DNA from: Capsulimonadaceae bacterium
Lineage (GTDB): Bacteria; Armatimonadota; Armatimonadia; Armatimonadales; Capsulimonadaceae
Direction: 5' to 3'
Assembly: GCA_965215505.1 (NCBI GenBank)
Contig: OZ244065.1
Coordinates: 4,544,001 to 4,608,000 of the forward strand
Length of the DNA: 64,000 nt
Shown here: positions 19,909 to 42,260 of the stretch, one piece after another
Numbering within the stretch: position 1 is the stretch's first letter
Layout of the letters: each line of letters opens with the position of its first letter
Translations under genes and position numbers: made by a program
The notes under the pieces: generated by a model
Seen by the model: the letters and a program-made list of their open reading frames with translations, nothing else
What the model was told of the DNA's origin: nothing
Database searches by the model: none

Positions 19909-19998
19909 TCATTTCTTCAAGGGGCGGATCGGCTCGGTCAACGGCTGGTACAAGGCCGTGTACGCCTCCCACGCACCTTTCTGATAAAGGTCGTGGAA
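19909..19998 (-). pseudogene. Displaced 3' end of the ogg gene (FHDLYQKGAWEAYTALYQPLTEPIRPLKK*)
   Basis: 21/29 aa identical to the C-terminus of ORF 41259-42260; similarity stops exactly at the shared core. Confidence 0.85.
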
Positions 19999-20072
19999 CA
20001 TTGAAAACTACACGCTTGCGAACGTCGAAATCACTGGGCAACGTCGAAATCGCTGGGCGCGGAACGGCTACA

Positions 20073-20309
20073 TCATCCGCCTGACTCTTTCTCCTCGGCC
20101 CGTTCTTCACCCTCTTGCCGACGATCCCGGAACTCGCGTAAGAGGCGGCGGATTAAGACGCTCGCTCCGCCATCCTCTTCAAGTGCGATGCTCCATAAAT
20201 CGTCCGGGACGTAAATCATCCGCCCCGGATATTTCTCCCGCCGCTTTCCAGGCGGGCGTCCTGGCCTTTTAGCCCCCTGTCCCTCGGTTGTCTCGTCGTT
20301 TGCTTCCAA
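20073..20309 (-). CDS. Small DNA-binding protein (AT-hook-like KRPGRPP plus ribbon-helix-helix-like region)
   Basis: KRPGRPPGK; RMIYVPDDLW...ASVLIRRLLREF; TTG start; divergent from the nuclease gene. Confidence 0.55.
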   Translation of the reverse strand: MEANDETTEGQGAKRPGRPPGKRREKYPGRMIYVPDDLWSIALEEDGGASVLIRRLLREFRDRRQEGEERAEEKESGG

Positions 20310-20413
20310 TCCTGCATCCTAAAACCGAGACCTGGTGCTTGGCCCCGGACATCACCTCAAACCATGTTACCATGGCACCATCTAAAAAACTTCTATCTCG
20401 CCCCGGATTCCCC

Positions 20414-20443
20414 TTGACAGAAGATGCAAGTTTATGTTAAGCT
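20414..20443 (+). promoter_or_regulatory. Sigma70-like promoter for the nuclease operon
   Basis: TTGACA-18nt-TAAGCT in an AT-rich intergenic region. Confidence 0.5.
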
Positions 20444-20556
20444 ATTTTTATAATAGTGCAGTAATGGTGCAACATTGATCGCCCTGCTGAACACTCGAAA
20501 GCCATGCCGACCACCAGGCGAAGTCGGTGACCGTCCACCGACGAAAGGAGTCAACT

Positions 20557-21357
20557 ATGACCGATCGTGTATGGACCGACCTGCCCCGCATCACCCCAAG
20601 CAGTGTTGGCGACCTCACCGGATGCGGCAAGCGATTCGCGGAGACACGCATCCTGAAGAACTGGGGCAGCAACAACCGCGACTTCCCGGAGAGCGTCGCT
20701 CATGGGACTGCCGTCCACGCCGTGCTCCGTGACGTGTTCCACGACCGACAGAATGACCAGGTCAACCTCACAAACTTGGGGGCACTCTCGCGGGCGGCAG
20801 TCTATAAGGGCCGCTACCCGAAAGGCTTTGAGCGGGAGCGTGCTGTCGAACGGGTCATGGAGGCCGTCTGCGGCTACGCTCGGTCCCAGGCCCCTGATGA
20901 TGTCGTGGGCACGATCCGGTGCGAGGACCAGATCGAGTTCCCTTTCTCATGGGAAAACAGGCCGCTCTGCATGATCTCGGCCACCCTCGACCGGGTCCTG
21001 GTGCGACCGGACCAGCCGACCCGTTTAATCGTCAAAGAGTACAAAACCACCAGGCCGAAGATCGACCTTCAAGAAATTTTCGTTGCGCTTTTTGCCGCCC
21101 GCCGCGCCTACCCGGACTACGAAACCTACGCCATGGAGATCGACTGGATCGCCGACGACGGCACCGTCTCGACGGACACTATCGAGGGGCGAGAGTTGCG
21201 CGGCCTGCACCCGGTCATCTTCCGGGCCGCCGTGAAGGTCATCCACGAGAAGCAGTGGGACGCCTGCCCCTCGGAGCGATGCACTTTTTGCCATCTCCGC
21301 GCCCAGTGTCAGAAGCTGCCAGCCGTCGAGATGAGAGAAGGGGATGAGGTGTTCTGA
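20557..21357 (+). CDS. PD-(D/E)XK nuclease, RecB/AddB/Cas4-like with probable Fe-S cysteines
   Basis: ITPSS....CGKRF, HGTAVHAVL, ATLDRV, IVKEYKT and C-terminal CTFC....C; AAGGAG RBS. Confidence 0.8.
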   Translation: MTDRVWTDLPRITPSSVGDLTGCGKRFAETRILKNWGSNNRDFPESVAHGTAVHAVLRDVFHDRQNDQVNLTNLGALSRAAVYKGRYPKGFERERAVERVMEAVCGYARSQAPDDVVGTIRCEDQIEFPFSWENRPLCMISATLDRVLVRPDQPTRLIVKEYKTTRPKIDLQEIFVALFAARRAYPDYETYAMEIDWIADDGTVSTDTIEGRELRGLHPVIFRAAVKVIHEKQWDACPSERCTFCHLRAQCQKLPAVEMREGDEVF

Positions 21358-21880
21358 ATTGGCCGAGGAAATATCCGATCTCGCACCTGACGCTGCGAAT
21401 GGCCCAACTGATGCCTATGCCGCGGGCTACTTTGACGGCGAGGGTTGCGTCGGCCTTTACACACGCGGCGGGAACGTTATTCCCCGCATCCGCATCGCTG
21501 TGAAAAGTGCAAATCTGCCGTGCCTTTTGGCACTGAAAGCCCGCTTCGGAGGCACCGTGACGATGGCTTCGCCACCGGGCCACAAGCGAAAAAGTCAATA
21601 TCGGTGGCGCATCGGCTCAATGCAGGACTGCCTGGCGTTCATCGCCGCTGTGGAACCACACTCCATCGAGAAGCGGGAGCAACTCGCTCTGGCTCGGGAG
21701 TGGCTCGAACACCGCTCGCGAACTCCCCTGCGTGGTCGCCGCTTCCCGGAGACATACTCCATGGCGGCCCGGATTCATGAGGCGATCTCCGTTCAGAAAC
21801 GCCTCGACTTCTACGCCTCCGCCATGGAGACTGAAACCAGCGGCCTGCACAGCCCCGCGATAATCAAGCCTCCTCCCTGA
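21344..21880 (+). CDS. Single-motif LAGLIDADG endonuclease-like protein
   Basis: AYAAGYFDGEGCV; LKARFGG..; YRWRI; F...VEPHSIEKREQL. Confidence 0.75.
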   Translation: MRCSELAEEISDLAPDAANGPTDAYAAGYFDGEGCVGLYTRGGNVIPRIRIAVKSANLPCLLALKARFGGTVTMASPPGHKRKSQYRWRIGSMQDCLAFIAAVEPHSIEKREQLALAREWLEHRSRTPLRGRRFPETYSMAARIHEAISVQKRLDFYASAMETETSGLHSPAIIKPPP

Positions 21881-21886
21881 AGCTGT

Positions 21887-24652
21887 TCATGTGATGCTCA
21901 TCTTGGCGAGGTCGTAGACGCGCAGAACCTCGTCGCCGTAGTGGTTGATGACCTTGACGGCGATCTTGCCCGTGTCGGGGGTGTCGAACGGGCGGCTGAC
22001 GGTGGAATACAAGGCCGACCACGCGGACTCGTCTATGTCGGCGCGCAGCGTGTCCCGCAGCTTCTTGTACGGGTCGCCGTCGCCCGTGAAGTAGGCGTGG
22101 CGCACGATGAACGCCTCGCCGTTGTAGGCGGTGTCCACGAACCAGCAGGCCAGGTCGTTGGTGCTGGACGGCTTGATCTCGCCCGTAGTCGGGTCGTAAA
22201 TGTCCAGGCCGAAGATTTCGACTTCGAGTTGCTCGGCCTTCTTCCGAATCTCGATGTCCGGTTCACCGAACACCATGAAGAGGTTGCCCGCGCCCGTCTT
22301 CTTCAGCAGATTCCCGCCGATCATCAAGTCCTGGTTGATGCGGGCCATCATCACCGTCAGCGGTCCGAACTTCTTGATGAGGTAGGTGTCCTCGGTCTGC
22401 TCCTTCGCCTCCTCGTACACGGCGGGGTCGAAGGCGAACCCGCAGATCACCAGGGTGTCGAAGTGCTTCCGTGCCTCCTTGACGGCCTCGCGCACCTGTT
22501 CCGCCGACACGGTGCCGAACTGCGGGCCGAGCGAGACGGCGATACGGTTCCCCGTGCCGCGCTGGACGCCCTCGGCTTGGATATACACGCTGCTGAACGG
22601 TTCCAACTGCTCGAACTCGATCTTCTCGCCCTTCTTCGTATTGCCGACACCCGCCCGCTTCAGGTTCTCGATAATGCTCTGCTCGTACTCGCCGTCCGCC
22701 TCGGCGGTGGCGCGCTTCTCCGTCGCGGGCCGCTCGGCTTCTTCGTCGGGGGCGACGACGCGGTGCGGCGAGATGCTTTCCACGGTGAAGGGGCCGCAGA
22801 CGCGCACGGCCTTGTTGTTCTCGTAGGGCCTGTCGTAGAGGTAAACGGTTTCAGCGCGGCGGGCGATGCTGGCGTCCATCTCCTTCTTGCGCTCGATCCA
22901 GTTCTTCCAGTAGTCGGCGAGCAGTATCGTCGCGGCGGCGGGCCAGTCTTCGCTCGCGATGCGGGGTATCTGCCAGGGTTCCAAGGCGTGACCGAGTTGA
23001 GCGTTCAGGGCGGCGCGAACCGGTTCCAGTTTCGCCTCCCAGCGTTCGTGGATGCCATCGATTTCATCGTTGTTGGCGATGGACTTCAGCGTCACACGGG
23101 GGACGCGTTCATAGACGAAGCCCTTCCGAACGTCGTTCATGGTCGGCGCATCGGGCTGCACTTTGCCGCTGACGATCTGTTCTCTTGCGCGTCCTTCGGG
23201 GCTGTCGGCCAGCAGGAAGGCGGGGTACTTCGCGGCCATCAGGCGGGTGCGGGCGAGGGCCAGAGCGACGCGGCTACTGTCAATCGTGACCCAGCGGCGG
23301 CCCCACTGCTCGGCAACGGTGGCGGTTGTGCCGCTCCCGCAGGTTGGGTCAAGAACGATGTCGCCTGGGTCAGTGGTCATCAGGATACACCGCTTGAAGG
23401 CTTCTGTGGAAGTTTGAACGACGTATATCTTTGGGTCGGATCGGCTCTGAACAGAACCGCTTATGTCGGACCACAAATTCCCCTTAGTTGTTAATTTGAA
23501 GTCGTCCAAGAAATGAATGTAAGAAAGCGTTCTTCCATTACCAAGTAGACGACCAGCCTCAGACAAGCGTTTGAGGCCAACTTGGTCTGTTCGAAATGTC
23601 CTATTGCCTGATGAATACGGAACTCCGTAAAGACGAAACGAAGATGCGTCGCCTGCACCCGGTGCACGGGTACTTGTCACGTCATCCAGCCGAAAATACC
23701 TACCAGAGTCGTCGGGAGTTGTCTGATTGTATCGGCGTTCTGCGTCGTCAGATTTCTCAACCACGATGGGATGCCATTTTGTATGGTTCTTGTCCCTACC
23801 ATACCACAGAAGGTAGTCGCAGGTCGCCCCCAAAAAGTCGCTGGTTTCACCTGTTGTTTTTCGGATGGTGATTTGAGATATAAAGTTTCTGTCCCCGAAC
23901 ACTTCATCCATGAGAGAGCGGACGCGGTGAACATTAGCGTCCCCAATCTGTACGAAAGCACTGCCACTCTCGGTCAGAAGTTCGCGGGCGACTGTCAGGC
24001 GGTCGCGCCAGTACGTCAGGTAGGTGTGAATGCCCTTCTCCCAGGTATCGCGGAAGGCGCGAATGACTTCGGGTTCGCGAGATAAATCCGCAATTTTCCC
24101 ATCCGTGACGGTGCGGCTCCGCGTTGTGGCCTGCCAGTTGGAGCCGAACTTGATGCCGTAGGGTGGGTCCATGATGATGCACTGTATCTGCCCCTTCAGG
24201 CTCGGTGTCTCGCCCTCGGCCAGCGCGTTCATCACCAGGAGCGAGTCGCCCAGGATCAGGCGGTTCCGCCACTTCTCCTGGTGCTGGCTGTATTCGATCT
24301 TCTTCTCCAGAGGCAGGAAATCTTCGACGGAGAACAGCGCGGGCTGCTCCCGCACGACGCCGCCCTCCTTCGCCGCCTTCGCCCGCTCCGCGTCGTACTG
24401 CACCGCCTTGATGATGTCCTGGGGGTTGATCTCCTCCTGGATGTAGAGCGGCACGACCGGGACGGCCAAATCCTCCGAGTCCAGTTCGTCCTTGCCCTGC
24501 CAGACCAGTTGCGGGTCGAGCGACGGGTCGCGGGGGTAGAGTTTCGGCTTCGGGCTGGCCTCCCGCTCCGCGTCAAAGTCGGAAAGTTCCGACGTGAGGA
24601 TGTTCGGGCGGGTGTCGTCGTGCTTGATGGTGTCGATCTTCGTCTCAGGCAT
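21887..24652 (-). CDS. Adenine-specific DNA methyltransferase (type III Mod-like, beta class)
   Basis: NRLILGDSL, DPPYGI and VLDPTCGSGTT; AT-richer central target-recognition region. Confidence 0.9.
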   Translation of the reverse strand: MPETKIDTIKHDDTRPNILTSELSDFDAEREASPKPKLYPRDPSLDPQLVWQGKDELDSEDLAVPVVPLYIQEEINPQDIIKAVQYDAERAKAAKEGGVVREQPALFSVEDFLPLEKKIEYSQHQEKWRNRLILGDSLLVMNALAEGETPSLKGQIQCIIMDPPYGIKFGSNWQATTRSRTVTDGKIADLSREPEVIRAFRDTWEKGIHTYLTYWRDRLTVARELLTESGSAFVQIGDANVHRVRSLMDEVFGDRNFISQITIRKTTGETSDFLGATCDYLLWYGRDKNHTKWHPIVVEKSDDAERRYNQTTPDDSGRYFRLDDVTSTRAPGAGDASSFRLYGVPYSSGNRTFRTDQVGLKRLSEAGRLLGNGRTLSYIHFLDDFKLTTKGNLWSDISGSVQSRSDPKIYVVQTSTEAFKRCILMTTDPGDIVLDPTCGSGTTATVAEQWGRRWVTIDSSRVALALARTRLMAAKYPAFLLADSPEGRAREQIVSGKVQPDAPTMNDVRKGFVYERVPRVTLKSIANNDEIDGIHERWEAKLEPVRAALNAQLGHALEPWQIPRIASEDWPAAATILLADYWKNWIERKKEMDASIARRAETVYLYDRPYENNKAVRVCGPFTVESISPHRVVAPDEEAERPATEKRATAEADGEYEQSIIENLKRAGVGNTKKGEKIEFEQLEPFSSVYIQAEGVQRGTGNRIAVSLGPQFGTVSAEQVREAVKEARKHFDTLVICGFAFDPAVYEEAKEQTEDTYLIKKFGPLTVMMARINQDLMIGGNLLKKTGAGNLFMVFGEPDIEIRKKAEQLEVEIFGLDIYDPTTGEIKPSSTNDLACWFVDTAYNGEAFIVRHAYFTGDGDPYKKLRDTLRADIDESAWSALYSTVSRPFDTPDTGKIAVKVINHYGDEVLRVYDLAKMSIT

Positions 24653-24654
24653 CG

Positions 24655-27600
24655 TCAGTTCTCTTCCTTGCGCGTCGGGAACCAGTGCGCGAACGGGTCG
24701 TTGGCGATGTGGCCGCGAATGACGCTCGCCGCCTCCCACGGGTCGGCGATCTCGATGTAGGACCAGCGGCCAAACGTCTGGTAATTGGTCGCGCCGTAGT
24801 TGTTCACGGCGGGAACCCAGAAACCTTTCGCCGTCATCGCCTTCTGCTGCTTATCGTTCTTCCGCAGGCCCGTCACCTCGATAATGAGTTGCAGCGGATC
24901 ATTTTTACCGTAGCCGTCGTCCACATGGGCGATGAAGTCGGGGAAATACTGCCGCTCCTTGCCCGCCAGCGTATACGGAATCGTGAAGCCGATGTTGTGG
25001 TTCTTGACGTAGCACCGCACTTCGTCCATCTCTTCCAATACCTGCGCCATCTTCTGTTCCCACGAGTCCGTGTCGCAGACGACGTGCGAGATGTGGCACT
25101 TGTCGGCGCGGGTGACATACGTCGGGCGCGTGGTCAGGTAATCTACATGGCGCGTCGTGCCGACGTACTCGTAAGGGCGCAGGATCGGCAGGAGTCGCTT
25201 GACGGGGGTATCTTGCCCCCCGTTGACAATGCCCCCATAGATTTTCTCCGCTGCCTCGTCCGCAGGCTCTCGGAACCGTAACAACTGGGGGAACGTCCTG
25301 TCACCGCAATGGAGGCAGTCCTTCATCCAGCGTTTCGTTATGGAGAGGACCTGTGGAAACAACCAGGACTTGTCGTTGCCAGACCCAGTCGGGAAGTACC
25401 GCTTCAGAATCAGGTGCGCCAGGTAGAACTCCACCTCCTGCACTCGCCGATGCCTTGCCTCCTCGACAGAAATAGTTACGGACTCCCCGATAATAGGCGC
25501 GTTTTCAGTGTCCATCGGAATGTCTTTGGTGGACAAGGAGTAGTGGTGGTCGAGTTGGAAGTCCGCCGTCAGCCGCTCCGTCGGCAGGTCGAAGCGGTAG
25601 CCGAGGACGCGGGGGAAGCGAATCTCGCAAGCCTCCCGCCGTTCTTCCAGGGCACGCACCCGCGTCGGGATCGGGCCTGGCTGCGGGTCGGTCGGCGTCC
25701 CAGCCGATGGGATGAACGAGAACGGCACCCCGAACACCTCGGCGTATTCCGGTTCCAGCATTCCATGTTCGTTCGGCGCGTAACTCATGCGGCGCAGGGC
25801 GCGGCCCACCACCTGCTCGCACAGAAGCTGCGTCCCGAAGGCGCAGACGCCCAGGACGTGCGTTACCGTGTTGGCGTCCCAGCCCTCGGTCAGCATGGAC
25901 ACGGAGACGACGCAGCGGACGCCCTCGCCGAGTTTGCCGCGCTTGCCGACTGTATTCATCACCTCGCGCAGAATGTCTTCGTCGTCCAGGTCGTCGGAGT
26001 CACGGCCTGGGTAGCGAATACGGTACTCGGACTTGAACTCCTCGATCTCGCGGGCGGCGATCTTCTTGAAGTCGTCGGTCAGGCCCTCACCCGAGTCCAG
26101 TTGCTCCGAGTCCACCAGGATCGTGTTCGGGCGGTGCAGCCACTGGGCGTCCTCGCTGACGTTGGAGAACAAGTCGAACTCGCCCCGCTTCAATTTCTTT
26201 GTCTTGCCGTCGTTCAGAGTGATCTCGTACCCCGCGACGTAATCGTAGACCAGTTTGGAAATCTGCGTGTTTTGACAGACGACGATGAAAACGGGAGGCG
26301 TGGTCGCGGCGCGGGCGGCGGGGCTACCCTCCCACCGCTCGTAGAACTTGCGGTAGTTGGTGTATAGGGCGTCCAGTGCGGCCTCCAACTCCTTCGGTAA
26401 GTTCGGGTCTTCGCTGGCCCGCTCCGCCGTCTTGCCACGGCCCGCCTTCGGCAGACCGTGCTTGATGTTCACCCAGAGGTTGCGGAACTTCGGCCCCTCG
26501 CTCGCCATCGTGTCATCGGAGACGGGGACCCGCGGCACCTTGACGATCCCGGACTCGATGCCGTCGATCAACGAGAAGTCCGATGCGACCCAGGGGAACA
26601 GTGCGCCTTCGGGGTAGCCCGACCCTTTCAGGAAGAACGGGGTCGCCGAAAGGTCGTAGATGGCGCGGACGCCGAGTTTGGCCTTGACGTGTTCCAGACC
26701 CGTATGCCACAGGTGGGCGGCCTTCGACTCCTTCTGCAAGGCCCGCTTCTCCTCCGCCGTCAGCGCAGTCATCGCCGCCGCCGCGTCGGTGTCGGGCTTG
26801 CGCGTCCAGCAGTGGTGCCCCTCATCGTTCAAGACGACGACGTTTTTCTTCGTTCCCAAGTCGCGGCAGACCCGCGCCACCATCTGCGCGGGCGTCTCCA
26901 GGAACGGACTGACATCCTTGCCCGTCAGCAGTTTCTTGGTCAGGGCCGCCGCGTCGCCTGTGTCGCGCAGGCGGAAGGCATGAAAGTTCACGAGGGCGAT
27001 CTTGGCACGGTTCATGTCGTCGCGCAGGTGGGGCGGCACGAGTTCCAGATCGGCGTAGTAGTTGTTCGGGTCGGACGGCAGCAGCACCCGCAGGCGGTCA
27101 CGGATGGTGATGCCAGGCGCGACCAGCAGGAAGGCGTCGGCGAATTTCGGGTTCTGCGGGTTTGCCAGCTTGTTCAGCGTGTGCCACGCGATCAGCATCC
27201 CCATCACCGCCGTCTTGCCGCCTCCGGTGCATAATTTGAACGCCGTGCGCTGAAGCGTAGAACTGGCCGTCTCATTGGCCGCGCTCAGTGTCACCGCGAA
27301 GTGACGATACTGCGGGATATTGGGGACGACTTCAGTGAGAAAGATCGCCGTCTCTGCCGCCTCAATCTGCGCGAAGAACAGCCGCCGAAACCGTCCCTCG
27401 TCCTGCCAGTAGTCCAGCAGGAGCCGCGTCGTGCGTGTCACGCCCTCGTACCGTCGCTCGCCCGAACGCCAGACCTTGACGTAGGCGCGCAGTTCGTTGA
27501 TGTACCGGTTCTCCTCGACCTTCTCCGGGACCGGTTCGTCCATGCCAGGCAGGACGGCCATCTGCGCCTTCCTGGACTTGACCTTCGGGATGGGTGAGAA

Positions 27601-27723
27601 GTACGAACTCACCCGCCGTTCGGGAACGACGCGGTTGGTGATGCCCTCGCCATCAAACTCGTGATGCTGCTTTGGTTCGTGATATGGGCTGTTGATGATG
27701 GGGTTTTTGATGACTTCAGGCAT
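24655..27723 (-). CDS. Type III restriction endonuclease Res-like subunit (SF2 helicase + PD-(D/E)XK)
   Basis: CTGGGKT, LNDEGHHC, LSATP, SVSMLTEGWD, QVVGRALRR and YFPDFI...IIEVTG; start placed at MPEVIKNPIINSPY. Confidence 0.88.
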   Translation of the reverse strand: MPEVIKNPIINSPYHEPKQHHEFDGEGITNRVVPERRVSSYFSPIPKVKSRKAQMAVLPGMDEPVPEKVEENRYINELRAYVKVWRSGERRYEGVTRTTRLLLDYWQDEGRFRRLFFAQIEAAETAIFLTEVVPNIPQYRHFAVTLSAANETASSTLQRTAFKLCTGGGKTAVMGMLIAWHTLNKLANPQNPKFADAFLLVAPGITIRDRLRVLLPSDPNNYYADLELVPPHLRDDMNRAKIALVNFHAFRLRDTGDAAALTKKLLTGKDVSPFLETPAQMVARVCRDLGTKKNVVVLNDEGHHCWTRKPDTDAAAAMTALTAEEKRALQKESKAAHLWHTGLEHVKAKLGVRAIYDLSATPFFLKGSGYPEGALFPWVASDFSLIDGIESGIVKVPRVPVSDDTMASEGPKFRNLWVNIKHGLPKAGRGKTAERASEDPNLPKELEAALDALYTNYRKFYERWEGSPAARAATTPPVFIVVCQNTQISKLVYDYVAGYEITLNDGKTKKLKRGEFDLFSNVSEDAQWLHRPNTILVDSEQLDSGEGLTDDFKKIAAREIEEFKSEYRIRYPGRDSDDLDDEDILREVMNTVGKRGKLGEGVRCVVSVSMLTEGWDANTVTHVLGVCAFGTQLLCEQVVGRALRRMSYAPNEHGMLEPEYAEVFGVPFSFIPSAGTPTDPQPGPIPTRVRALEERREACEIRFPRVLGYRFDLPTERLTADFQLDHHYSLSTKDIPMDTENAPIIGESVTISVEEARHRRVQEVEFYLAHLILKRYFPTGSGNDKSWLFPQVLSITKRWMKDCLHCGDRTFPQLLRFREPADEAAEKIYGGIVNGGQDTPVKRLLPILRPYEYVGTTRHVDYLTTRPTYVTRADKCHISHVVCDTDSWEQKMAQVLEEMDEVRCYVKNHNIGFTIPYTLAGKERQYFPDFIAHVDDGYGKNDPLQLIIEVTGLRKNDKQQKAMTAKGFWVPAVNNYGATNYQTFGRWSYIEIADPWEAASVIRGHIANDPFAHWFPTRKEEN

Positions 27724-28294
27724 GGGGTCCGTTTCTCGTGCGCGGGATGCACCGAGAAATTCCACAAAGCGGCCTTGAACTCCTGCACGATTATCCCAAA
27801 GCCTGATAGCGCGATTGGCGGCAGGCACTCCTGCACGCGCTACAAGCCTCCTCGAAGACGTTGACGGTGTCCGGTCATCACGACGCCTGGAAATGCGTCC
27901 TGGGGGTGTTCTGCGCGGTCCTGAGGCATATGGACGAGACAAACCGGGGGCGCACCGAAACCGGACGGCGGGCGCACCACCGGGTAGCCTGGAGCATGAC
28001 GGTGCCAGACACCGCAAATACCTTCCGCCAGAATGCCGATGACGAGGATGACGGTAAGCCACTCCTCCAACTTGACGCTTCCAGAGACCGAGGGGAGACA
28101 GGAACACAGAGATGCCCCGGTCGAGATGGCGACTTCTGAGTGCGAGTTGTAACCACATGAATGATAGACGTATGTCTAAAAAATGGTGTGGTTCCGGGGT
28201 ATCATGAACGCGGTGCAGGTGGGGACCACTTTTATCCCGAAGCACCTCTATGTAGGATGATCCGAGATCATCCCTGATAAAGGAAGCCAACACA

Positions 28295-32232: not shown

Positions 32233-32437
32233 GATATTGTGTTGCCGCCCCTCTGAACTCGTCGCGGCTCATCAGCACCGTCTTGCCTCGGTGTCGGTAG
32301 GCCGCGAGTACCGTCCGAACGACTCCGGGGTGCGCTCTAACCCACTCCAGCCCCTCGTACTCTCCCGTACCGTCCGGGGTTTTCTTTATCTCGCCCGCCG
32401 TCACAGGCACTGCTGACGGCGCGGTTTCGGTAACCAT
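32225..32437 (-). CDS. Small hypothetical protein coupled to Prim-Pol (possible directionality factor or regulator)
   Basis: GAGAGG RBS; stop overlaps the Prim-Pol start. Confidence 0.45.
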   Translation of the reverse strand: MVTETAPSAVPVTAGEIKKTPDGTGEYEGLEWVRAHPGVVRTVLAAYRHRGKTVLMSRDEFRGAATQYHG

Positions 32438-32640
32438 TTTCTGCCTCTCATAACGCTATGTCACGACTTCGCTGTCCCACCCGACCCGAAAGAGCGTGGT
32501 GGAATGACAGCGGCCTCGTGTGGTGCATGATAGTGCCGTGGATGGCCTGCGAACGGAAAATAGTTGATAATTTTTTTGAGACCCGGTAAAATGAGCAGGG
32601 TTTGAAGATCGCAAGAATACTTCCGGTGGACGGGCAGAAC

Positions 32641-34293: not shown

Positions 34294-34510
34294 CTCAGAA
34301 GGGGCGAAGAGTCCCGCGCCCGGACATCCCATCCGCTCCGCACCATTGTGTCAGGCAACCGGAAGCGATTCCCGCCCGCCCGCTTGAAAGATCACATTCC
34401 GTGGTATAGTAATTGTATCCCAAGATTGATTGGGTCAGGTTCTTGCAAAACCCTCGCCGACATTTTCCCGTCGAACCGCCCCGCGGCGAGGAAGCAGCGC
34501 ATGAACCATC

Positions 34511-35470
34511 ATGGCCTATCACCAGACCGAACAGCCGCACGGCCCTGTTGACCTTTCCTTTCCGGTCCCGGATCACGCCCGCGTTGTCGCCGTCGGTGCC
34601 TCGGCGGGCGGGCTACAGGCCCTCGGCCTAATCCTGGCCGCCCTGCCTGCCCACTTCCCCGCGCCCGTCCTTGTCGTCCAGCACCTGTCCCCCGACTTCC
34701 CCAGCCAACTCGCCCGCCTCCTGGGACGCCACACGGCCCTGCACGTCAAGCAGGCCGCCCAGGGCGACCGCCTCCGGGCGGGCTGGGTGTACGTCGCCCC
34801 ACCCGGAAAGCACCTGTTGGCCTGTGCCGACGGGAGCCTCGCGCTGACCCTCACCCACAAAGTGCACCACTGCCGCCCGTCCGCCGACGTGCTGCTCACC
34901 TCCGTGGCGGCCAGTTTCGGGGTCCGGGCGGTCGGCGTGATCCTGACGGGCGGCGACGGGGACGGTGCGGCGGGCATCCAGGCAATCAAGGCAGCGGGCG
35001 GTGTCACCATCGCCCAAGACCTGTCCAGCAGCCAGCAACCCAGTATGCCTCGAAACGCCGCCGCGACGGGGGACGTGGACCATGTGCTGCCGTTGTCCGA
35101 CATCGCCGCCGCTCTGATGGCTCTAACGGGTCCGGGGGGGCAGTCTGCCACTGAAAGAGAACGCCCCAGCGAAGACGAGACCGAGGTCCATGAGAATGGG
35201 AACCGGGCGGGGCGTTTCGAGTGTGACAGGGTCAATGAGAGGGCGCGGGTGAGGCGGAACCGCGTCGCAGGTCTGCTGAAGCGGGCGCAGGCGACGCCGA
35301 CTTCCCCTGGCCTCCTGGAGGAGGCGGTCGCAGAACTTGCGGCCTGTTCGGGGGCGTTGGGGGTGGCGGAGGAGGCTTTACGGGTGCAAAGTGACGTTAT
35401 CACATCGTACTGGCTGGCTCTCGGGGCCGAAGCCGCAGGGCCGCCGACCCGCGGAACGTCCCCTTCCTGA
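34511..35470 (+). CDS. CheB-type methylesterase with a C-terminal coiled-coil extension
   Basis: VGASAGG, VVQH, RPSADVL and ILTGGDGDG (S-H-D triad); no receiver domain. Confidence 0.85.
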   Translation: MAYHQTEQPHGPVDLSFPVPDHARVVAVGASAGGLQALGLILAALPAHFPAPVLVVQHLSPDFPSQLARLLGRHTALHVKQAAQGDRLRAGWVYVAPPGKHLLACADGSLALTLTHKVHHCRPSADVLLTSVAASFGVRAVGVILTGGDGDGAAGIQAIKAAGGVTIAQDLSSSQQPSMPRNAAATGDVDHVLPLSDIAAALMALTGPGGQSATERERPSEDETEVHENGNRAGRFECDRVNERARVRRNRVAGLLKRAQATPTSPGLLEEAVAELAACSGALGVAEEALRVQSDVITSYWLALGAEAAGPPTRGTSPS

Positions 35471-35525
35471 GAGGGAAAGTATTCGGAGGAATGATTGAGG
35501 AAAATCATTCAGAACTGAGACAACC

Positions 35526-36704
35526 ATGGCCCGTGCGAAACTGCTGCTCCAGGAGATCGAGACCTACGCTCAAAATATAGGCGATACCGTCCGAGACCCC
35601 CTGGTCATCCTCGACAGGGACCTGCGCGTCAAGTCCGCGAACCGGTCGTTCTATAAGACGTTCCAGACCTCGCCCGAGGACACGGAGGACTGCCTGATCA
35701 GCGAACTCGGCAACGGCCAGTGGGACCTGCCCCCGCTGCTGGCCCTGCTGCGCGACATCCTCCCCACCAAGGGCCACTTCGACGACTTCGAAGTGACGCA
35801 CGACTTCCCCTGCATCGGCCAGCGGACCATGCTGCTGAACGCCCGCAAGCTGTACCGTCCAGGCAACCGCACCGTCCTGCTCGTCCTCGACATCGAGGAC
35901 ATCACCGAGCGCAAGCGGACCGAGACGCGGCTCGCCGCCGCCCAGCAGCGCGACAGACGGATCGCCTCCACCCTCCAGCGCGCCCTGCTGTTCATGCCCC
36001 CGGAGGACGCCTTCCCAGGGCTGGAGGTCAAGATGCTGCACGAGGCGGCCTCCGAGGAGGCCCTGGTGGGCGGCGACTTCTGGGATATGTTCGCCTACGA
36101 CAACGGCCACGTTGCCCTGGTGATCGGGGACGTCATGGGCCATGGGCTGACGGCGGCGGTGTTCACGGCGGAGATCAGGTTCATCCTGCGGGCCTTCCTG
36201 CGGGAACACGAGCGGCCCGGTTTTGTCCTGAACAACCTAAACGCCTACCTGTGCGAGAGCCACCGCCTGTTCCGGGAGGGGCTGAATGATGAGGGGGACG
36301 AGGCCCCCGTGTGCCTGGCCTTGGCGGTGATCCACGCCGCGTCGGGGGAGGGCGTGGTGGCGTCGGCTGGGATGGAGCCGCCACTGCTGATCCGGGCGGG
36401 CACGGGGATCGATCAAGTGGCGGTGTCGGGTCTGCTGCTGGGGGTCGAGGCGGACCAGGAGTACCAGGCGGTTCCGTTCCGCCTGGAACACGGGGACACG
36501 CTCCTGCTGACGACGGACGGGATCACGGAGGCGCGGCGGGGCAAGGAGTTCTTGGACACGGCGGGCCTGATGCGTCTGGTGCGGGAGGCCCCGCTGCGGG
36601 GGAACCTGGAACAGACGGCGCAGTCCATTTTGGCGGGGGCGCGGGAGTTTGGGGGCGGCAGGTTCCGGGATGATGTGTGCCTGGTGATGGCGCGACGCCT
36701 GTGA
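35526..36704 (+). CDS. PAS + PP2C (SpoIIE-like) phosphatase
   Basis: PLVILDRDLRVKSANRSFY...ELGNGQWD PAS; VGGDFWD, IGDVMGHG, TTDGITE and DDVCL. Confidence 0.88.
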   Translation: MARAKLLLQEIETYAQNIGDTVRDPLVILDRDLRVKSANRSFYKTFQTSPEDTEDCLISELGNGQWDLPPLLALLRDILPTKGHFDDFEVTHDFPCIGQRTMLLNARKLYRPGNRTVLLVLDIEDITERKRTETRLAAAQQRDRRIASTLQRALLFMPPEDAFPGLEVKMLHEAASEEALVGGDFWDMFAYDNGHVALVIGDVMGHGLTAAVFTAEIRFILRAFLREHERPGFVLNNLNAYLCESHRLFREGLNDEGDEAPVCLALAVIHAASGEGVVASAGMEPPLLIRAGTGIDQVAVSGLLLGVEADQEYQAVPFRLEHGDTLLLTTDGITEARRGKEFLDTAGLMRLVREAPLRGNLEQTAQSILAGAREFGGGRFRDDVCLVMARRL

Positions 36705-36841
36705 CGGAAGTCGCCCCGTGTAACGCGGGGCTTCAACCGTCGCGGGCGAGTGCGGGAAGATTTTGGCGTCGGGTGTCCGTTAAATCATGGCTTCGTTGGA
36801 GTCAGGTACTCAGGAGACGGCAGCGTCGGGAGACAAGCGCA

Positions 36842-37426
36842 ATGGGGGATGAGATGCTCGCGCCGACTGGGGGGCCAGTCGGCCCTTCTCCAGAGGCCCC
36901 GGACCCCACGCCTTCCATGCAGGAACACCCCTCCACTCGGGCACGGACGACGCCCCCACCGTTGTCGCTGCTGGACAAAGCCTTGGTGGAATTGGAAGCC
37001 TGCCTCGAAGCCCTGCGGGTGGCCGAGGGAGTCATCCGGGCGCAGAATGGGGTCCTGAAGGAGTACCGTATGGCCCGCCACGCCGAGCGGCGTCGATACC
37101 TGGACCTGTTGGCGTATGTGTCCGACGCGCTCCTGGTCACCGACGTGGACGGCCTGATCCTGGAGGCAAGCCCCGCCGCTGCCCGCCTGCTGTCGGGGTC
37201 TCGGCGTCTCCGCGCTGGCAAGCCCATCGCCCGGTTCTTCACGCATGACAGGCGGGTGGCCCTGCTCGGGGCAGTGCGGGCCACCGGGGGCGGGGCCGCC
37301 TGGGAGGGTGACCTGTGGATCAAGCCGCGGCTCGGCGTGGCCTTCTTCGCCTTCGTCACCGTCACGCCCGTGCCTGCCGCCAAGGACGTCCCGCCCGCCC
37401 TGCGCTGGCTGATTCGTCCCGCCTGA
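36842..37426 (+). CDS. Coiled-coil + PAS domain protein
   Basis: ELEACLEALRVAE...ERRRYLDLL...DALLVTDVDGLILEASPAAARLL. Confidence 0.7.
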   Translation: MGDEMLAPTGGPVGPSPEAPDPTPSMQEHPSTRARTTPPPLSLLDKALVELEACLEALRVAEGVIRAQNGVLKEYRMARHAERRRYLDLLAYVSDALLVTDVDGLILEASPAAARLLSGSRRLRAGKPIARFFTHDRRVALLGAVRATGGGAAWEGDLWIKPRLGVAFFAFVTVTPVPAAKDVPPALRWLIRPA

Positions 37427-37522
37427 CTGCGTGCCCCCCACGAGCCATGTGCCTCACTGGACTGAACTCGGGGAGTGGCAGGGTGGGCAACACTCGCGGT
37501 CTGATGCTGCGCCGCTCCGACG

Positions 37523-37951
37523 CTACACCCTCGACTTGAGGCGTTTTTCCGCGACGACCGTCGTACCCGTCGGGTGTGACGTGCGGAACTCCACGTTATC
37601 GGCGAGGCTCCTGACGAGGTGCAGACCGAATCCGCCGAACCTCTCCGTTCCATCCACGTCTGCGCGGGCTGACCCGACCGGAGGCAACGAAGCCGTGTCC
37701 AACCCCGGACCGTAGTCGGCCACGCTCAACGTCACCCGGTCAACGTGGTATTCGAACCGCACCTGGAAATAGCCAGCAGAGGAGCGGGCGTGCAGTGTGG
37801 CGTTCGAGGCGAGTTCACCCAGGATGACCTCGACGTCCGTGATGTCGTCGGCGGCCACGCCGTGGCGTTCCAGGAGCAGCCGAGCCATATGGCGGATGAT
37901 GGGCACGAACGCGTGGTCTTCGGGCAGGTCGAGCGCGAGGGCGGTCTTCAT
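37523..37951 (-). CDS. RsbW-like anti-sigma factor / serine kinase (HATPase_c)
   Basis: LGELASNATLHA, VADYGPG and GGFGLHLVRSLAD. Confidence 0.85.
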   Translation of the reverse strand: MKTALALDLPEDHAFVPIIRHMARLLLERHGVAADDITDVEVILGELASNATLHARSSAGYFQVRFEYHVDRVTLSVADYGPGLDTASLPPVGSARADVDGTERFGGFGLHLVRSLADNVEFRTSHPTGTTVVAEKRLKSRV

Positions 37952-38064
37952 GGCCCTTGTCTTTCTGCCCCCCCGCGGGTGCGCGACTGGTGACTAAATG
38001 CTTTACTATACCCAGCCTGTGGTCGTATCGTAGAACCGTAACCCTCAAGGTGCGAAAATTCCGT

Positions 38065-40341
38065 TCAGTCGCCCACGGCTCCAATCAGCAGGCACACGTC
38101 GTCGCCGACGACGCCCTGCGCGTGGGCCTCCATGCCCGCGATCAGACGCCCCGCCACGCACTCCGCCACTTCCTGCGCGGTTTCACCCGCGCTCGGTGCA
38201 CAGGCCAGAAGCAGGGCCTCAACGCCCTCCACCCCCAGCATCTCGCGGCGCGTCGGCCCCGCGTCCGTCAGGCCGTCCGTAAACAGGGCGAGGCAGTCCG
38301 ACGGGGCCAGTGAAATCCGCTCCTCCCGGAAGGTGGCACCCGAGATTGATCCCAGGATCGGACCCGTCGGGAGAAGCTGCTCCACCGCCCCGGTCGCGGC
38401 GCGCCACAGCAGGCCAGGTTCCTGACCCGCATTGACGTAGTTGAGCGTCCGCGCCCCGCTGTCGTAGGCCCCGACGAACAGGGTGGCGAAACCGGTCAGC
38501 AGGCCGTTCTCCGCCAGCGTCCGGTTGAGCGCGGTGACGGCCTCGGCCAGCGTCGGCAGCGTGTACAGGAAGGCGCGCAGCATATTCCGCAGGGTCGCCA
38601 GTTGCGAGGCCGCCGCCAGCCCTTTCCCGCTGACGTCGCCCACGACCAGGGCGTGGCACCCGTTCTCCACGGGGAACACGTCGTAGAAGTCCCCGCCGAT
38701 CTCGGCTTCGGTCAAGGCCGCCTGGTAGTGCCCGACCACGGCCAGGCCCGGAATGTCTGCGGAGTTCGTAGGACGTAGCGCGTCCTGGAGTTGCGCGGCG
38801 ATGGCGCGCTCCCGCTGGTTGGCGCGGGCCGTTTCCACTGCCGCACGCACCTGGGCGGCCACCGCCTCCACCGTTTCTACCTCGTCCGCCGTCCACTTCC
38901 TCGGCTGGTCCGCCATCGCCACTACGAAAGCCGCGGTGGGGCGACCCCGGTCGTAGAACGGCACGCCGACCAGCGACCGCTCGCCGATCCGCTCGAAGGC
39001 CGCCGCCGTCTCCGAAGAGAGCGGCCCCCTGCGGACATCCTCGATGACCACCGTCTGCCCTCCCCGAAACACCTCCTCGACGGCCAGACCCATCTCCGAG
39101 AGGCGGTACTCGCCCGCAAGCGGCGGGAGGTGCGGGCGGTGCCAGTCCTCCTCCACCGTGCAGCGGTCCTGGGGTACGTCGTAGAGAACGTAGAAGCACC
39201 GGTCCGCAGCCAGGTGCTCCCCCAACACGGCGAGAGCGGTCGCCTGCACGACACGCAGGTTCGCCGAGGCGCGGGCCGCCAACCCGACCCGGTTGATGAC
39301 GGCCTCCCGCTCGGCCCGCGCCTCGGCCTCGATGAGAAGCTGTTCCCGCTCCTGCTCCAGTTCCCACCGCTCGGTGATGTCCGTCGCGGTCCCCACCCAC
39401 CGGAGGACACGGCCCGCCCCGTCTTTGACGGGCACCGAGCGGCCCAGGTGCCACCGGTAGACGCCGTCGGCGCGGCGCAGGCGGTACTCGACCTCGGATG
39501 GCACCCCCGCCTCAAGAGCGGCCCGCCAGACGGAAGTCGCCCGTGCGACGTCGTCGGGGTGGATCACGGGCTGCCAGCCCCAATCCCGCGTCTGCTCGAA
39601 GGTCAAGCCGCTGAACTCGTACCAGACCTTGTTGTAGTAGTCGATGCCGCCGCCCGGTCCTGTCGTCCAGGCGATCTGGGGCATGGTGTCGGCCAGCAGG
39701 CGGTACCGCTCCTCCTCGGCCTGGCGGCGCGGGGCGGCGTCGCGAACCAGCCAGCGCAGGCCCGCGGGCTGGCCGCCCCGGTCGCGCACGACGGTGACGG
39801 TCACGGCGGCGTCAACGGGCGCACCGCTCCGGGGCCGTAGCCGCAGGTCCCGCTCCGTGGCGACCGAGGGTGGCTGATTGCCGCTCAAAAGAGGCCCTGC
39901 CTGGGCGAGGACGGTGAGGTCGCGATAGAACGCTGCCCGCGCCTCTTCCGAGACGTAGACGGCCAGTGGCTTGCCGATCAGGGCTGGCCGCCTTCGGAAA
40001 CCCAGGAGCGACACGGCGGCCTCGTTCACCTCCCCGATGATGCCGCCCATGTCGGTAACGAAGTAGGCGTCCGGGGCGGACTCGAACAGGTCCTGGTACC
40101 GCCGCCGCTCGTCCTCCAGGGCGAGGCGTGAGGCGAGCAGCGCCTCGTTCTGAACGCGCAGTTCCTCCTCGGTGACGAGCAACTCCTCGATGGTGGTGCC
40201 GAGTTCCGCGAACGCCTGGTCCAGCAGTCTGCCCGACTCGCCGCCCGCACTGGCCCGTTCGGTGAGTCCCACGACCCGCTCCCGGATGGCGGCAAACTGA
40301 CGGGCGAATGGCTCGAACGGGAGTTGGTCTTCTTGTCTCAT
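38065..40341 (-). CDS. Coiled-coil-PAS-PAS-GAF-PP2C (SpoIIE-like) phosphatase
   Basis: IHPDD PAS, GAF, IGGDFYDV, VGDVSGKG, FTDGLTD and DDVCLL; start placed at MRQEDQ. Confidence 0.88.
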   Translation of the reverse strand: MRQEDQLPFEPFARQFAAIRERVVGLTERASAGGESGRLLDQAFAELGTTIEELLVTEEELRVQNEALLASRLALEDERRRYQDLFESAPDAYFVTDMGGIIGEVNEAAVSLLGFRRRPALIGKPLAVYVSEEARAAFYRDLTVLAQAGPLLSGNQPPSVATERDLRLRPRSGAPVDAAVTVTVVRDRGGQPAGLRWLVRDAAPRRQAEEERYRLLADTMPQIAWTTGPGGGIDYYNKVWYEFSGLTFEQTRDWGWQPVIHPDDVARATSVWRAALEAGVPSEVEYRLRRADGVYRWHLGRSVPVKDGAGRVLRWVGTATDITERWELEQEREQLLIEAEARAEREAVINRVGLAARASANLRVVQATALAVLGEHLAADRCFYVLYDVPQDRCTVEEDWHRPHLPPLAGEYRLSEMGLAVEEVFRGGQTVVIEDVRRGPLSSETAAAFERIGERSLVGVPFYDRGRPTAAFVVAMADQPRKWTADEVETVEAVAAQVRAAVETARANQRERAIAAQLQDALRPTNSADIPGLAVVGHYQAALTEAEIGGDFYDVFPVENGCHALVVGDVSGKGLAAASQLATLRNMLRAFLYTLPTLAEAVTALNRTLAENGLLTGFATLFVGAYDSGARTLNYVNAGQEPGLLWRAATGAVEQLLPTGPILGSISGATFREERISLAPSDCLALFTDGLTDAGPTRREMLGVEGVEALLLACAPSAGETAQEVAECVAGRLIAGMEAHAQGVVGDDVCLLIGAVGD

Positions 40342-40537
40342 GCCTACTCTTGTTCCTGACTTCCGTTCCGTCCAGGCCGCGCACCGAAGCCGCGCTTCCC
40401 GCGGCACCCACACCGCGCCCGTGTGAAAAGGCGCAAGCAGCCAAGCCCGAGTGATTGTAACACGAATCACTCCGTTCGGCAAGGGCGAGGTACGGGACGA
40501 GGAATGACGGGGGCTTGGGAGGCGGCGATCACTGACA

Positions 40538-41107
40538 TCACGGGGCACAGGCGAGTTCGGTCAGGACGGCGGCGATGTCCGTGGGAGGCAGGACATACTG
40601 CACGCGGGCGCGGGCGATGGCGTTGCGGGGCATGGCGGGGAAGAGGGCGTCGGCGGGTTCCTGCGCGATGCTGGCCCCGCCGTGCCTGTTGATCTCGATC
40701 AGGCCAGCTGTGCCGTCGTCGAGCACCCCGGACAGGACCACCCCGACGACGCGGCTCCCGTAAGCCCGTGCCGCCGAGCGGAACAATGGATCGACGGCGG
40801 GGCGCGTGTGGTGTTCCCGTGCGGCCAGGGACAGGCGCAGCACCGCCTGCTCGACGAGGAGATGATGGCCTGGGGGCGCAACGTAGATGTGGCCCGACCG
40901 GATGGCCTCGCCGTCCTGTGCGTGCGTGGCGGGGAGCGGGCCGCTCCTGCTCAGGATGTCTGGGAGTACACTGCGGCTGTCTGCGGGGATGTGGACGGCC
41001 ACGCAGACGGCGGCGGACAGATCGGGCGGGAGGCCGCCGACCAACTCTGTCAGTGCCGTCACGCCGCCCGCGGAGGCTCCAATCACGATGATGTCATGTC
41101 TGGGCAC
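40538..41107 (-). CDS. Stand-alone CheB-type methylesterase
   Basis: IGASAGG, VAVHIP, RPAVDPLFRS and LSGVLDDG. Confidence 0.88.
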   Translation of the reverse strand: MPRHDIIVIGASAGGVTALTELVGGLPPDLSAAVCVAVHIPADSRSVLPDILSRSGPLPATHAQDGEAIRSGHIYVAPPGHHLLVEQAVLRLSLAAREHHTRPAVDPLFRSAARAYGSRVVGVVLSGVLDDGTAGLIEINRHGGASIAQEPADALFPAMPRNAIARARVQYVLPPTDIAAVLTELACAP

Positions 41108-41258
41108 GGTTGCTGACCGTTCGCCTTTTACTTGTCATTCGCGTAGTCTACCCGGTGGAGGACGAGGGCTAACCCACAAACGCTTCGATGGCGGAGCAGT
41201 GAGCGCGGTCGTAAGGACCCGTCTTATGCAGAACTACTTAGGGTGCGCTAAATCAGGA

Positions 41259-42260
41259 CTAACTAAACTTCCTCGGGTCTTTCTTGAGGGGCTGGACCGG
41301 TTCGACGAACGGCTGGTACAAAGCGGTGTACGCAGACCACTGATTTTTAAGGTAGAGGTCGTGGAAGAATAGGTACTGCTGCGCCCAGCCGGCCATCGGC
41401 CCGAACTGCTTCCGCAGGTGGTCGCCGATCTGGGCATAGCCGGCTTTAGTCAGCGTCTTGGCGGCGGGGGTATTTTTGAGGTACGTCCGCTGGGCGATAC
41501 GGCGGATGTGGGTGTCCACGGGGATGGCCCCATCCTGGTCCAGCGAGAACAGGCAGACGCAGTCGGCGATCTTCTCGCCGACGCCCGGCAGGGTCATCAG
41601 GGCCGCCTTCGCCTCGGGGTAGGGGAGCGCGCGCAGGCCGAACAGCCAGGCCGCCCCGCCGTTCGCCATGACCTTCTGCGCCGTCTCCTTGATGGAGCGC
41701 GCGCGGTAGGCGAGGCCGGTGTTGGTCAGGTGCGGGATGGAGGCCTCGGCCAGCCGGTGGATGGGCGGGAAGGCGTGATGGACCAGCCCCGCCACCTCGC
41801 CGCCGGGGTAGTCGTCCCCATACTCGCGGCACAGGGCGGCGATGGTCCTCCGGATGCGGTACAAAGGGGCGGCTGGCGTGCAGAGGAAGGAGAACAGGCA
41901 TTCCACGGGGTCCTGCCGGATGACGCGCAAGCCGGCGAACTCGCGCACCGCGTCCCGGATGTTCGGGTCGTGGGCGGCGAAACCGGCCGTCAGGGCCGGC
42001 AGGTCCACGTCCAGCCGGAAGTAGTCCCGCACCAGGGCCATGTCATCGGGGCACGGACCGGTCTCGTAGTAGACCATCTCGTCGTCCTGCCAAAGCCGGA
42101 CGAGCTGGTGCGCCGTCCGGCCCGTCGCCGGGTCGGTGATGGGCAGCAGGCAGGCCCACCAGCCCGCCTTGTCCCGCCGCCAGCGGAAGGTCTGGCCGCA
42201 GATGACGGTGTAGGTGATCTCGAACTCCGCGATGGGGCAGAGGAAGGTGGAGTACGGCAT
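41259..42260 (-). CDS. ogg: 8-oxoguanine DNA glycosylase (Ogg family, HhH-GPD); last ~35 codons supplied by the element
   Basis: CGQTFRW, GLRVIRQDPVECLFSF, GLAYRA, LPGVGEKIADCVCLF, IPVDTH and AGWAQQYLF. Confidence 0.9.
   Translation of the reverse strand: MPYSTFLCPIAEFEITYTVICGQTFRWRRDKAGWWACLLPITDPATGRTAHQLVRLWQDDEMVYYETGPCPDDMALVRDYFRLDVDLPALTAGFAAHDPNIRDAVREFAGLRVIRQDPVECLFSFLCTPAAPLYRIRRTIAALCREYGDDYPGGEVAGLVHHAFPPIHRLAEASIPHLTNTGLAYRARSIKETAQKVMANGGAAWLFGLRALPYPEAKAALMTLPGVGEKIADCVCLFSLDQDGAIPVDTHIRRIAQRTYLKNTPAAKTLTKAGYAQIGDHLRKQFGPMAGWAQQYLFFHDLYLKNQWSAYTALYQPFVEPVQPLKKDPRKFS

Follow-up and report, generated by a model that had tools for sequence, protein, structure and literature searches.

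A probable serine-integrase element docked at the 3' end of an ogg gene in an Armatimonadota-type genus

What placed a second copy of the end of an 8-oxoguanine DNA glycosylase gene (ogg) 21.4 kb away from the intact gene? The locus lies in a 64-kb stretch (the window) of a Capsulimonadaceae genome, hereafter G000, whose host phylum is Armatimonadota-type. The original prediction had proposed a 21.4-kb site-specific integrative element with its chromosomal attachment site (attB) in the 3' end of ogg. The window was compared with 41 related genomes, comprising 24 species genomes of the host genus and 17 from outside the genus, and with contigs from public sequencing runs. Positions 19999-41355 very probably represent an integrative element that was inserted into ogg by one of its two large serine recombinases, hereafter LSR2, and that is neither a phage nor a conjugative element. 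Its junctions, a related element with the same ends in genome G009, an empty site in genome G012 and the recurrence of insertions across the genus all agree with the proposed element and target.

The 11-mer AGGTCGTGGAA has two copies in the window and no more (19988-19998 and 41356-41366), both of them on the forward strand, against an expected count of 0.06 and with at least two matches in 1 of 100 shuffles. It forms the inner end of a longer direct repeat (family D7) of 87 nt and 75% identity, which spans 19912-19998 and 41280-41366, and 21,357 bp separate the two cores. One copy lies within ogg, orthologues of which were found in 41 of 41 related genomes, and the other heads an orphan stretch that reads as an ogg tail ending in a stop codon. 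Both tail copies are in one codon phase (by coordinate arithmetic, 41364-41259 = 105 and 19996-19909 = 87 are multiples of 3), so that removal of the interval would rejoin ogg in frame. Repeat, orphan tail and in-frame rejoining were thus found as originally described. The crossover falls on Phe-His-Asp-Leu codons, where the canonical Ogg core ends and a C-terminal extension follows that is conserved within the genus. Up to about residue 299, ogg is chromosomal, and its final 32 codons are element-borne. This element-type tail, with the motif 'LKNQWS', shows eight synonymous and no non-synonymous codon differences among 33 between G000 and genome G015, which argues that it has been kept as coding sequence.

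The original prediction had called for a comparison with relatives for an empty ogg locus, and G012 provides one. Its ogg, the closest to that of the window (87%), is uninterrupted and ends in a native 'QKGAWD' tail, with an ECF sigma gene, equivalent to window 7577-8185, following 40 nt later; this is the empty site. Relative to it, all of window 8224-41258 is extra, which also includes a copy of an insertion sequence and a paralogous gene described below. The occupied counterpart is G009, whose ogg is only 74% identical and yet bears an element of this kind in which both ends are conserved. There, an 86% homologue of LSR2 lies 68 nt behind ogg, followed by a Prim-Pol gene and then by a further serine recombinase gene. 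The first 348 nt of a second G009 contig match window 20113-20460 at 85% identity; this contig continues with the orphan tail, which abuts the element via the same 29-nt arm as in the window (Table 1), and proceeds to a PAS-GAF-SpoIIE gene. Of the core, only 5 nt are shared in G009, as judged by eye.

Insertions at this position recur within the genus. With the 53-residue ogg tail as query, a second tail was found in 8 of the 24 genus genomes (G000, G009, G011, G015, G016, G018, G006 and G021) and in none of the 17 genomes outside the genus, and the starts of the eight orphan tails all fall within a few codons. Leaving G000 and G009 aside, the paired tails of the remaining six genomes lie 1.1-3.5 kb apart, enclose no recombinase and differ in cargo, which comprises MerA (487 bits; cut-off, 454) and a MerTP-like protein in G011, a cyclase-STAND-TPR protein as sole cargo in G015, a PLD-helicase in G016, the same PLD-helicase split into two open reading frames (ORFs) in G018, a pilin-like DUF1559 protein in G006, and a YhcG/DUF1016 nuclease (PADLOC PDC-S02) in G021. 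The 29-nt arm on the element side of the orphan tail shows ungapped likeness, in a register fixed by the tail, across three cassette types. G000 and G021 agree at 16 of 29 positions (a value reached by 7 of 21,944 locus positions), G018 and G021 at 18 of 29 (1 of 21,944), and G009 and G016 at 16 of 29 (9 of 23,944). The arm of G011, at 13 of 29 (259 of 22,568 positions), has no clear similarity, and those of G006 and G015, which needed gaps, were excluded from this count. The G015 cassette has the same 'LKNQWS' tail as the window, and the roughly 70 nt behind it resemble the window's. The two tail copies of G006 are almost identical to each other, and so are those of G021. Taken together, the end of ogg reads as a repeatedly hit insertion hotspot in the genus.

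The window itself holds more than one insertion. A search with nhmmer and a profile built from all ogg tails returned a third, truncated tail (Table 1) just upstream of a PAS-GAF-SpoIIE gene at 13233-15758, which in G009 and G018 comes directly after the orphan tail. With this third tail, the window holds a tandem array, and the orphan tail at 19909-19998 is therefore probably not the original one and was probably brought by an earlier, smaller cassette. The simplest reading of the stack would run from the ogg body through the 21.4-kb element, tail 1 of an older STAND/Crp cassette and the truncated original tail to the old neighbour gene. The prediction thus stands in that ogg could be rejoined to the orphan tail in frame, and is revised as to where that tail came from.

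Two large serine recombinase genes could have been responsible for the insertion. LSR2 and the second, LSR1, both match PF00239 and PF07508 above the Pfam cut-offs, with the zinc ribbon PF13408 just below (23.8 and 23.0 bits, respectively, vs 25.3), and both match the phrog_95 integrase family, with LSR1 being 21% identical to LSR2. The serine of the 'IRVS' motif of LSR2 is invariant in three homologues (G000, G009 and one at 39% identity), and LSR1 carries 'VRVST' (by eye). The ratios of non-synonymous to synonymous substitution rates are 0.125 for LSR2 (vs G009) and 0.076 for LSR1. The best solved-structure match of LSR2 is the catalytic domain of the TP901-1 integrase (E = 2.7e-5). Since the form of LSR2 on record (512 aa) would begin behind the 'IRVS' serine, the longer start at 32641 is more likely. 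LSR1 has a 96% homologue in G012, on a contig other than that of the ogg locus, and no homologue of LSR2 was found in G012. Given that the LSR1 module resides in a tRNA-Arg island there while ogg is empty and LSR2 is absent, LSR2, not LSR1, is the recombinase tied to ogg, and it is most likely the enzyme that inserted the island. The notion of a serine-integrase element in ogg therefore holds for LSR2, whose close homologue lies beside ogg in G009, and fails for LSR1, which travels with its module at tRNA-Arg.

The LSR2 clade is rare, with four proteins at E <= 1e-10 among 5.8 billion. A search of contigs returned two loci in genome contigs (G009 and a 36% relative), none in viral contigs and two at 36% in metagenome contigs. 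Two further observations concern the gene models. The public gene start of LSR2 (region 32602-32760) is probably annotated too far downstream. Also, in both recombinases an unusually long insert separates the N-terminal serine motif from the remainder of the catalytic domain; the Pfam Resolvase match starts only at residue 203 in LSR1 and at residue 100 in the 563-aa form of LSR2.

As predicted, the interval contains recombinases, a replication gene and restriction-modification (R-M) genes, namely the two large serine recombinases, Prim-Pol and a methylase/restriction pair. The features of the interval and of the adjoining older cassette are listed in Table 1.

Table 1. Coordinates of the features at the ogg locus, given as window positions; a dot marks features without strand
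Feature	Position	Strand	Basis
Third ogg tail, truncated to roughly its last 13 codons and the stop	15754-15795	-	nhmmer tail profile, E = 0.0045; ranks third in the window, behind the two known tails
Older cassette behind tail 1	15796-19908	-	Pfam; homologous STAND gene between two ogg tails in G015
84-aa ORF	15809-16064	-	Older cassette
Crp-family regulator	16185-16880	-	Older cassette
Cyclase-STAND-TPR protein	16957-19899	-	Older cassette
Orphan ogg tail 1 (native 'QKGAWE' type), 29 codons, in frame, stop at 19909	19909-19998	-	26/28 residues as in the G012 native tail
attR core	19988-19998	.	Sequence match
Element arm beside attR ('P arm', 29 nt)	19993-20021	-	24/29 identical to G009
78-aa basic ORF at attR end; possible regulator or directionality factor	20073-20309	-	Intact 78-aa ORF with identical central part in G009
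PD-(D/E)XK nuclease	20527-21357	+	Pfam PDDEXK_1, 6e-12; phrog_69 exonuclease
Small endonuclease-like ORF	21344-21880	+	phrog_5046 'HNH endonuclease', 1.9e-19; LAGLIDADG_1, 5e-4, under Pfam cut-off
N6/N4 DNA methyltransferase, 950 aa	21887-24739	-	Pfam N6_N4_Mtase, 1.1e-33
BPTD_3080-family restriction endonuclease, 1261 aa	24655-28440	-	NCBIfam NF046055, 1115 bits (cut-off 800); PADLOC REase_III, 8.5e-8
LSR1, second large serine recombinase	28295-30325	+	Pfam; phrog_95
Prim-Pol with winged-helix domains, replication initiator candidate	30634-32232	-	Pfam Prim-Pol, 1.6e-12, plus HTH families; phrog_1156 DNA primase
70-aa ORF overlapping Prim-Pol start	32225-32437	-	ORF list; within stretch 79% identical to G009
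LSR2, large serine recombinase, proposed ogg-specific integrase, ATG at 32641	32641-34293	+	Resolvase, Recombinase, Zn_ribbon_recom; phrog_95 integrase, 1.7e-51
Host-like cargo block, approximate limits	34330-41190	.	Pfam; GC; absence from G009 element
CheB	34511-35470	+	Cargo block, Pfam
PAS-SpoIIE	35526-36704	+	Cargo block, Pfam
PAS	36677-37426	+	Cargo block, Pfam
HATPase_c_2	37523-37951	-	Cargo block, Pfam
PAS-PAS-GAF-SpoIIE	38065-40548	-	Cargo block, Pfam
CheB	40538-41107	-	Cargo block, Pfam
Element-borne replacement ogg tail ('LKNQWS' type) plus stop codon	41259-41355	-	Same type in G015 (98% aa) and G009 (90% aa)
ogg, 8-oxoguanine DNA glycosylase, 333 aa	41259-42260	-	Pfam OGG_N, 4.6e-20, plus HhH-GPD; best NCBIfam TIGR00588 ogg, residues 3-303
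attL core, 11 nt, same as attR core	41356-41366	.	Sequence match; bridged by X15 and X17 contigs

The element is a mosaic of three parts, which are ends, LSR2 and Prim-Pol of the G009 type, an R-M/LSR1/Prim-Pol module of the type found at tRNA-Arg in G012, and a 6.9-kb host-like CheB/PAS/SpoIIE block. The second part corresponds to a stretch on another G012 contig that is 84-88% identical to window 20542-32215 and is bounded by tRNA-Arg(TCG) and an 80-nt piece mapping to the same tRNA locus of G000, beside a tyrosine integrase gene. The Prim-Pol of G012 is 77-79% identical in amino acids to that of the window, and that of G009 69%. As the module occurs in an ogg island in the window and in a tRNA-Arg island in G012, it moves between islands that use different integration modules.

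The third part accounts for about a third of the island. The content of G+C (GC) is 0.55-0.69 at 20-34 kb and a flank-like 0.65-0.72 at 34-41 kb, and the genes of the block belong to a large paralogous multi-copy family of the genus. The whole block was found in no other genus genome, and the listed matches outside G000 are paralogues, none of which covers more than about 1.6 kb of the 6.9-kb query. It is missing from the G009 element, which implies that in the window this cargo was inserted between the tail and LSR2. A separate cassette was considered for it and rejected, as no further tail copy was found between LSR2 and the CheB block (tblastn; nhmmer at E <= 100). Since the 'LKNQWS' tail directly abuts LSR2 in G009 and the window has no extra tail copy, the block lies inside the element. 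The original prediction thus stands as regards site-specific entry and is amended in that the island is a mosaic, about a third of which is host-like signalling cargo.

The Pfam analysis covered the ORFs scanned in the interval, and the PHROG analysis seven of its proteins. None of these matched phage capsid, tail, terminase or lysis genes; the PHROG matches were integrase, primase and nucleases only. Likewise, no relaxase, oriT, coupling protein or type IV secretion component was recognised, nor was a Phage_integrase-family (tyrosine integrase) gene within 19999-41355, among the ORFs scanned. The ORFs at 20073-20309 and 32225-32437 had no significant Pfam or PHROG match, and for Prim-Pol no solved structural relative was found by sequence.

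On this basis, we propose that LSR2 would insert the element at the Phe-His-Asp-Leu codons. In the circular form, the element's attachment site (attP) would combine a short core with the conserved 29-nt arm on one side and an ogg-like tail on the other, and recombination with attB would fuse the 32-codon tail that the element brings to the ogg body of the chromosome, leaving ogg whole and displacing the former tail 21.4 kb downstream as an orphan. Prim-Pol may replicate the excised circle, and the methylase/BPTD_3080 restriction pair and the nucleases are cargo. By landing ahead of an older cassette (tail, STAND gene and Crp gene), the element would have created a tandem array, as at the site of the staphylococcal cassette chromosome (SCC).

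Several results weigh against this proposal. No LSR2 homologue was found at E <= 1e-10 in the six genomes with small cassettes, and no recombination directionality factor was recognised in the Pfam and PHROG scans. Because of the cargo block, 7 kb separate LSR2 from attL in the window, and the two are not neighbours. The prediction had further asked whether homologous recombinases also lie next to ogg, which was found in G009 and not for the distant relatives (36-39%), with a usable downstream flank at only one of three loci (L035, 6 kb). A crude test gave no significant dyad symmetry for the inferred attB or attP, as 461 of 500 and 66 of 500 shuffles, respectively, reached the observed values. 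Moreover, the elements of G000 and G009 are 79-85% identical in nucleotides and the host genes around them only a little less (71-78%), so that one old integration with precise loss in G012 cannot be separated from two independent integrations; either history would require site-specific recombination at the ogg site. Finally, in contigs of the public runs X1, X3, X15 and X17, which were aligned to window 22501-42500, no joint of an excised circle or a restored attB was seen; this stretch did not hold both attachment sites, and contigs drop rare forms.

The last result bears on the strongest alternative, namely that the island is a fossil that entered site-specifically and can no longer excise owing to its cargo block, mosaic rearrangement or loss of a directionality factor. 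We consider this rather unlikely. Two further runs, from different studies, gave contigs with the same or nearly the same attL junction (X15 record 15, corresponding to 37511-41412 with 0 differences, and X17 record 23, corresponding to 40442-41433 with 1 difference), the neighbouring older cassette is decayed with a truncated distal tail, and six relatives carry integrase-less cassettes, all as might be expected of a fossil, together with the missing excision joint. Conversely, LSR2 is an intact ORF under purifying selection, the cores are identical over 11 nt, the arm is conserved with G009, and contigs cannot show rare excision, in keeping with an element that may still be capable of moving. 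A 204-nt X3 contig from a relative's ogg ceases to fit at 41359, which is expected of a native tail and adds little.

It is improbable that the two recombinases act as a pair like the Ccr proteins of SCC, or that integration at ogg is the task of LSR1 alone, with a different role for LSR2. The elements of G000 and G009 do each have two large serine recombinase genes flanking Prim-Pol, and SCC elements rely on CcrA together with CcrB (named as a pair in PMC11470126). However, G009's second recombinase shows no sequence relationship to LSR1 (best BLASTP E = 0.047), whereas LSR2 is 86% conserved, and the presence of LSR1 in the tRNA-Arg island of a genome with an empty ogg and no LSR2 homologue speaks against any tie to this site.

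Still less credible is an origin without a site-specific enzyme, either by homologous (Campbell-type) recombination of circular or linear DNA carrying an ogg 3' fragment or through a hotspot of exchange between homologous flanks. The duplicated segment does consist of some 90 nt of homologous coding sequence, and the near-identical tails of G006 and G021 would suit such a process. Yet the tail pair of the window, at only 75% identity, would be a poor substrate, the orphan tails of eight genomes start within a few codons, the non-ogg 29-nt arm is kept in register in three cassette types, and in G009 the site is directly adjoined by a gene for a serine integrase. That the duplication is an assembly artefact, a refutation envisaged at the outset, is contradicted at attL and extremely unlikely overall, as no point in its favour was found, contigs from the runs of other studies bridge both attL (those of X15 and X17) and the LSR2/cargo junction, and independent assemblies of seven other species have the same architecture. 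LSR2-mediated insertion is thus retained as the preferred explanation.

Some additional observations were made at the loci described. The PLD-helicase is encoded by one ORF of 987 aa in G016 (L015, 5229-8192) and by ORFs of 502 and 551 aa in G018 (L016, 5531-8673), and the GC of these two cassettes is low (0.47-0.49 vs 0.55-0.59 for the loci). G011 has a further tail-like stretch (L013, 5330-5367; E = 0.012), a third partial tail. Tail-like matches in G008 (L021, 4892-4931; E = 0.45) and G021 (L018, 5926-5966; E = 0.5), about 0.7-0.9 kb behind ogg, were too weak to be counted. If such partial stretches were real, insertions would have occurred in more than eight genomes, including one counted as empty. 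The G009 element (L023, 14212-19998) has other defence-type cargo, namely an Eco57I/MmeI-type methylase and a 1152-aa PLD/SNF2 helicase, and runs off its contig. The island on G012 contig C2 spans about 18.6 kb (L025, 4569, to L026, 3245) and comprises the tyrosine integrase and the PDDEXK/methylase/BPTD_3080/LSR1/Prim-Pol genes; a serine recombinase has no obvious role within a tyrosine-integrase island.

In the window, two paralogous cyclase-STAND-TPR genes (10434-13208 and 16957-19899) are 72-76% identical in nucleotides at a spacing of 6784 nt, and only the second lies within the array. Both contain 120-nt TPR repeats (families D1-D6). A copy of the insertion sequence IS200/IS605 at 8328-10015, made up of a Y1 transposase ORF (8328-8867; Pfam Y1_Tnp, 2e-32) and a TnpB-like OrfB_IS605 (8864-10015), sits where homology to the region downstream of the G012 ogg breaks, at 8223/8224.

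A literature search for ogg as an attachment site yielded nothing relevant in full text, with supplementary files and subscription journals lying outside its coverage. The locus would supply a rare serine-integrase clade with a defined target, ogg, and a natural set of attB, attL and attR sites, and such pairs are useful as orthogonal tools for genome engineering. It also offers an initial glimpse of the mobile DNA of a phylum for which hardly any has been described.

Serine-integrase prophages usually split their target gene, which is restored only on excision. The island shares with such prophages and excisable elements in protein-coding genes, exemplified by A118, TP901-1, SPbeta and Bxb1, the enzyme class, a short identical core at both junctions and a target in a conserved gene. 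Unlike them, it supplies a working replacement end, and no phage structural genes were found among the proteins scanned. In this respect it rather resembles tyrosine-integrase islands in tRNA or transfer-messenger RNA genes, of which G012 provides an example, and which carry the 3' end of their target, keep it functional and leave a partial repeat at the far end; it differs from these in its protein-coding target and in the lack of a tyrosine integrase in 19999-41355 among the ORFs scanned. The replacement gene end, a habit of islands with tyrosine integrases that target tRNA genes, would here be the work of a serine integrase. The island also resembles streptococcal integrative and mobilizable elements and integrative and conjugative elements with serine recombinases (PMC4701971, PMC5704250) in being small, in lacking, as far as the scanned ORFs show, a transfer apparatus of its own and in having a serine recombinase that targets a conserved gene. 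The difference here is that the scanned ORFs gave neither a recognisable relaxase nor an oriT.

The closest parallel is SCC, including SCCmec, which is found at rlmH with tandem SCC-like defence cassettes (PMC11470126, PMC7581432, PMC6222049). SCC too is an island with large serine recombinase and replication genes at the 3' end of an intact housekeeping gene, and its tandem cassettes are bounded by site repeats, at times lack a recombinase and are rich in restriction, nuclease and resistance genes. The tandem feature is matched here by three tail copies in the window and by integrase-less cassettes between two tails in six genomes. The differences are that the target is ogg and not rlmH, the host an Armatimonadota-type genus and not one of the Firmicutes, the replication gene a Prim-Pol with winged helices and not the primase-helicase operon of SCCmec, and the replaced gene end long, at 32 codons. 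LSR2 scored 33.7 bits against the NCBIfam model of CcrB (cut-off, 900) and 25.4 bits against that of CcrA (cut-off, 700), far below what would make it a Ccr protein, and LSR1 had no Ccr match. Hence, the island is not an SCC, and its docking at the 3' end of a housekeeping gene is to be seen as analogy rather than membership.

Around the island there is possibly a broader cassette-docking system. We tentatively suggest, with more doubt than confidence, that the ogg 3' end acts as a cassette chromosome in the SCC sense that evolved independently in a distant phylum. The LSR2 clade would dock its own element there and would move integrase-less mini-cassettes of 1-4 kb in trans, each with the 29-nt arm and a working replacement tail, so that defence and resistance genes (PLD-helicase, YhcG nuclease, STAND and MerA/MerTP) could circulate and stack behind a single repair gene. 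That cassettes recur and stack behind a single housekeeping gene, some of them with no integrase, suggests that trading such genes in the manner of SCC is not confined to staphylococci. Set beside these systems, the island is a serine-integrase island of an ordinary kind, for which the target, the host phylum and the context are new.

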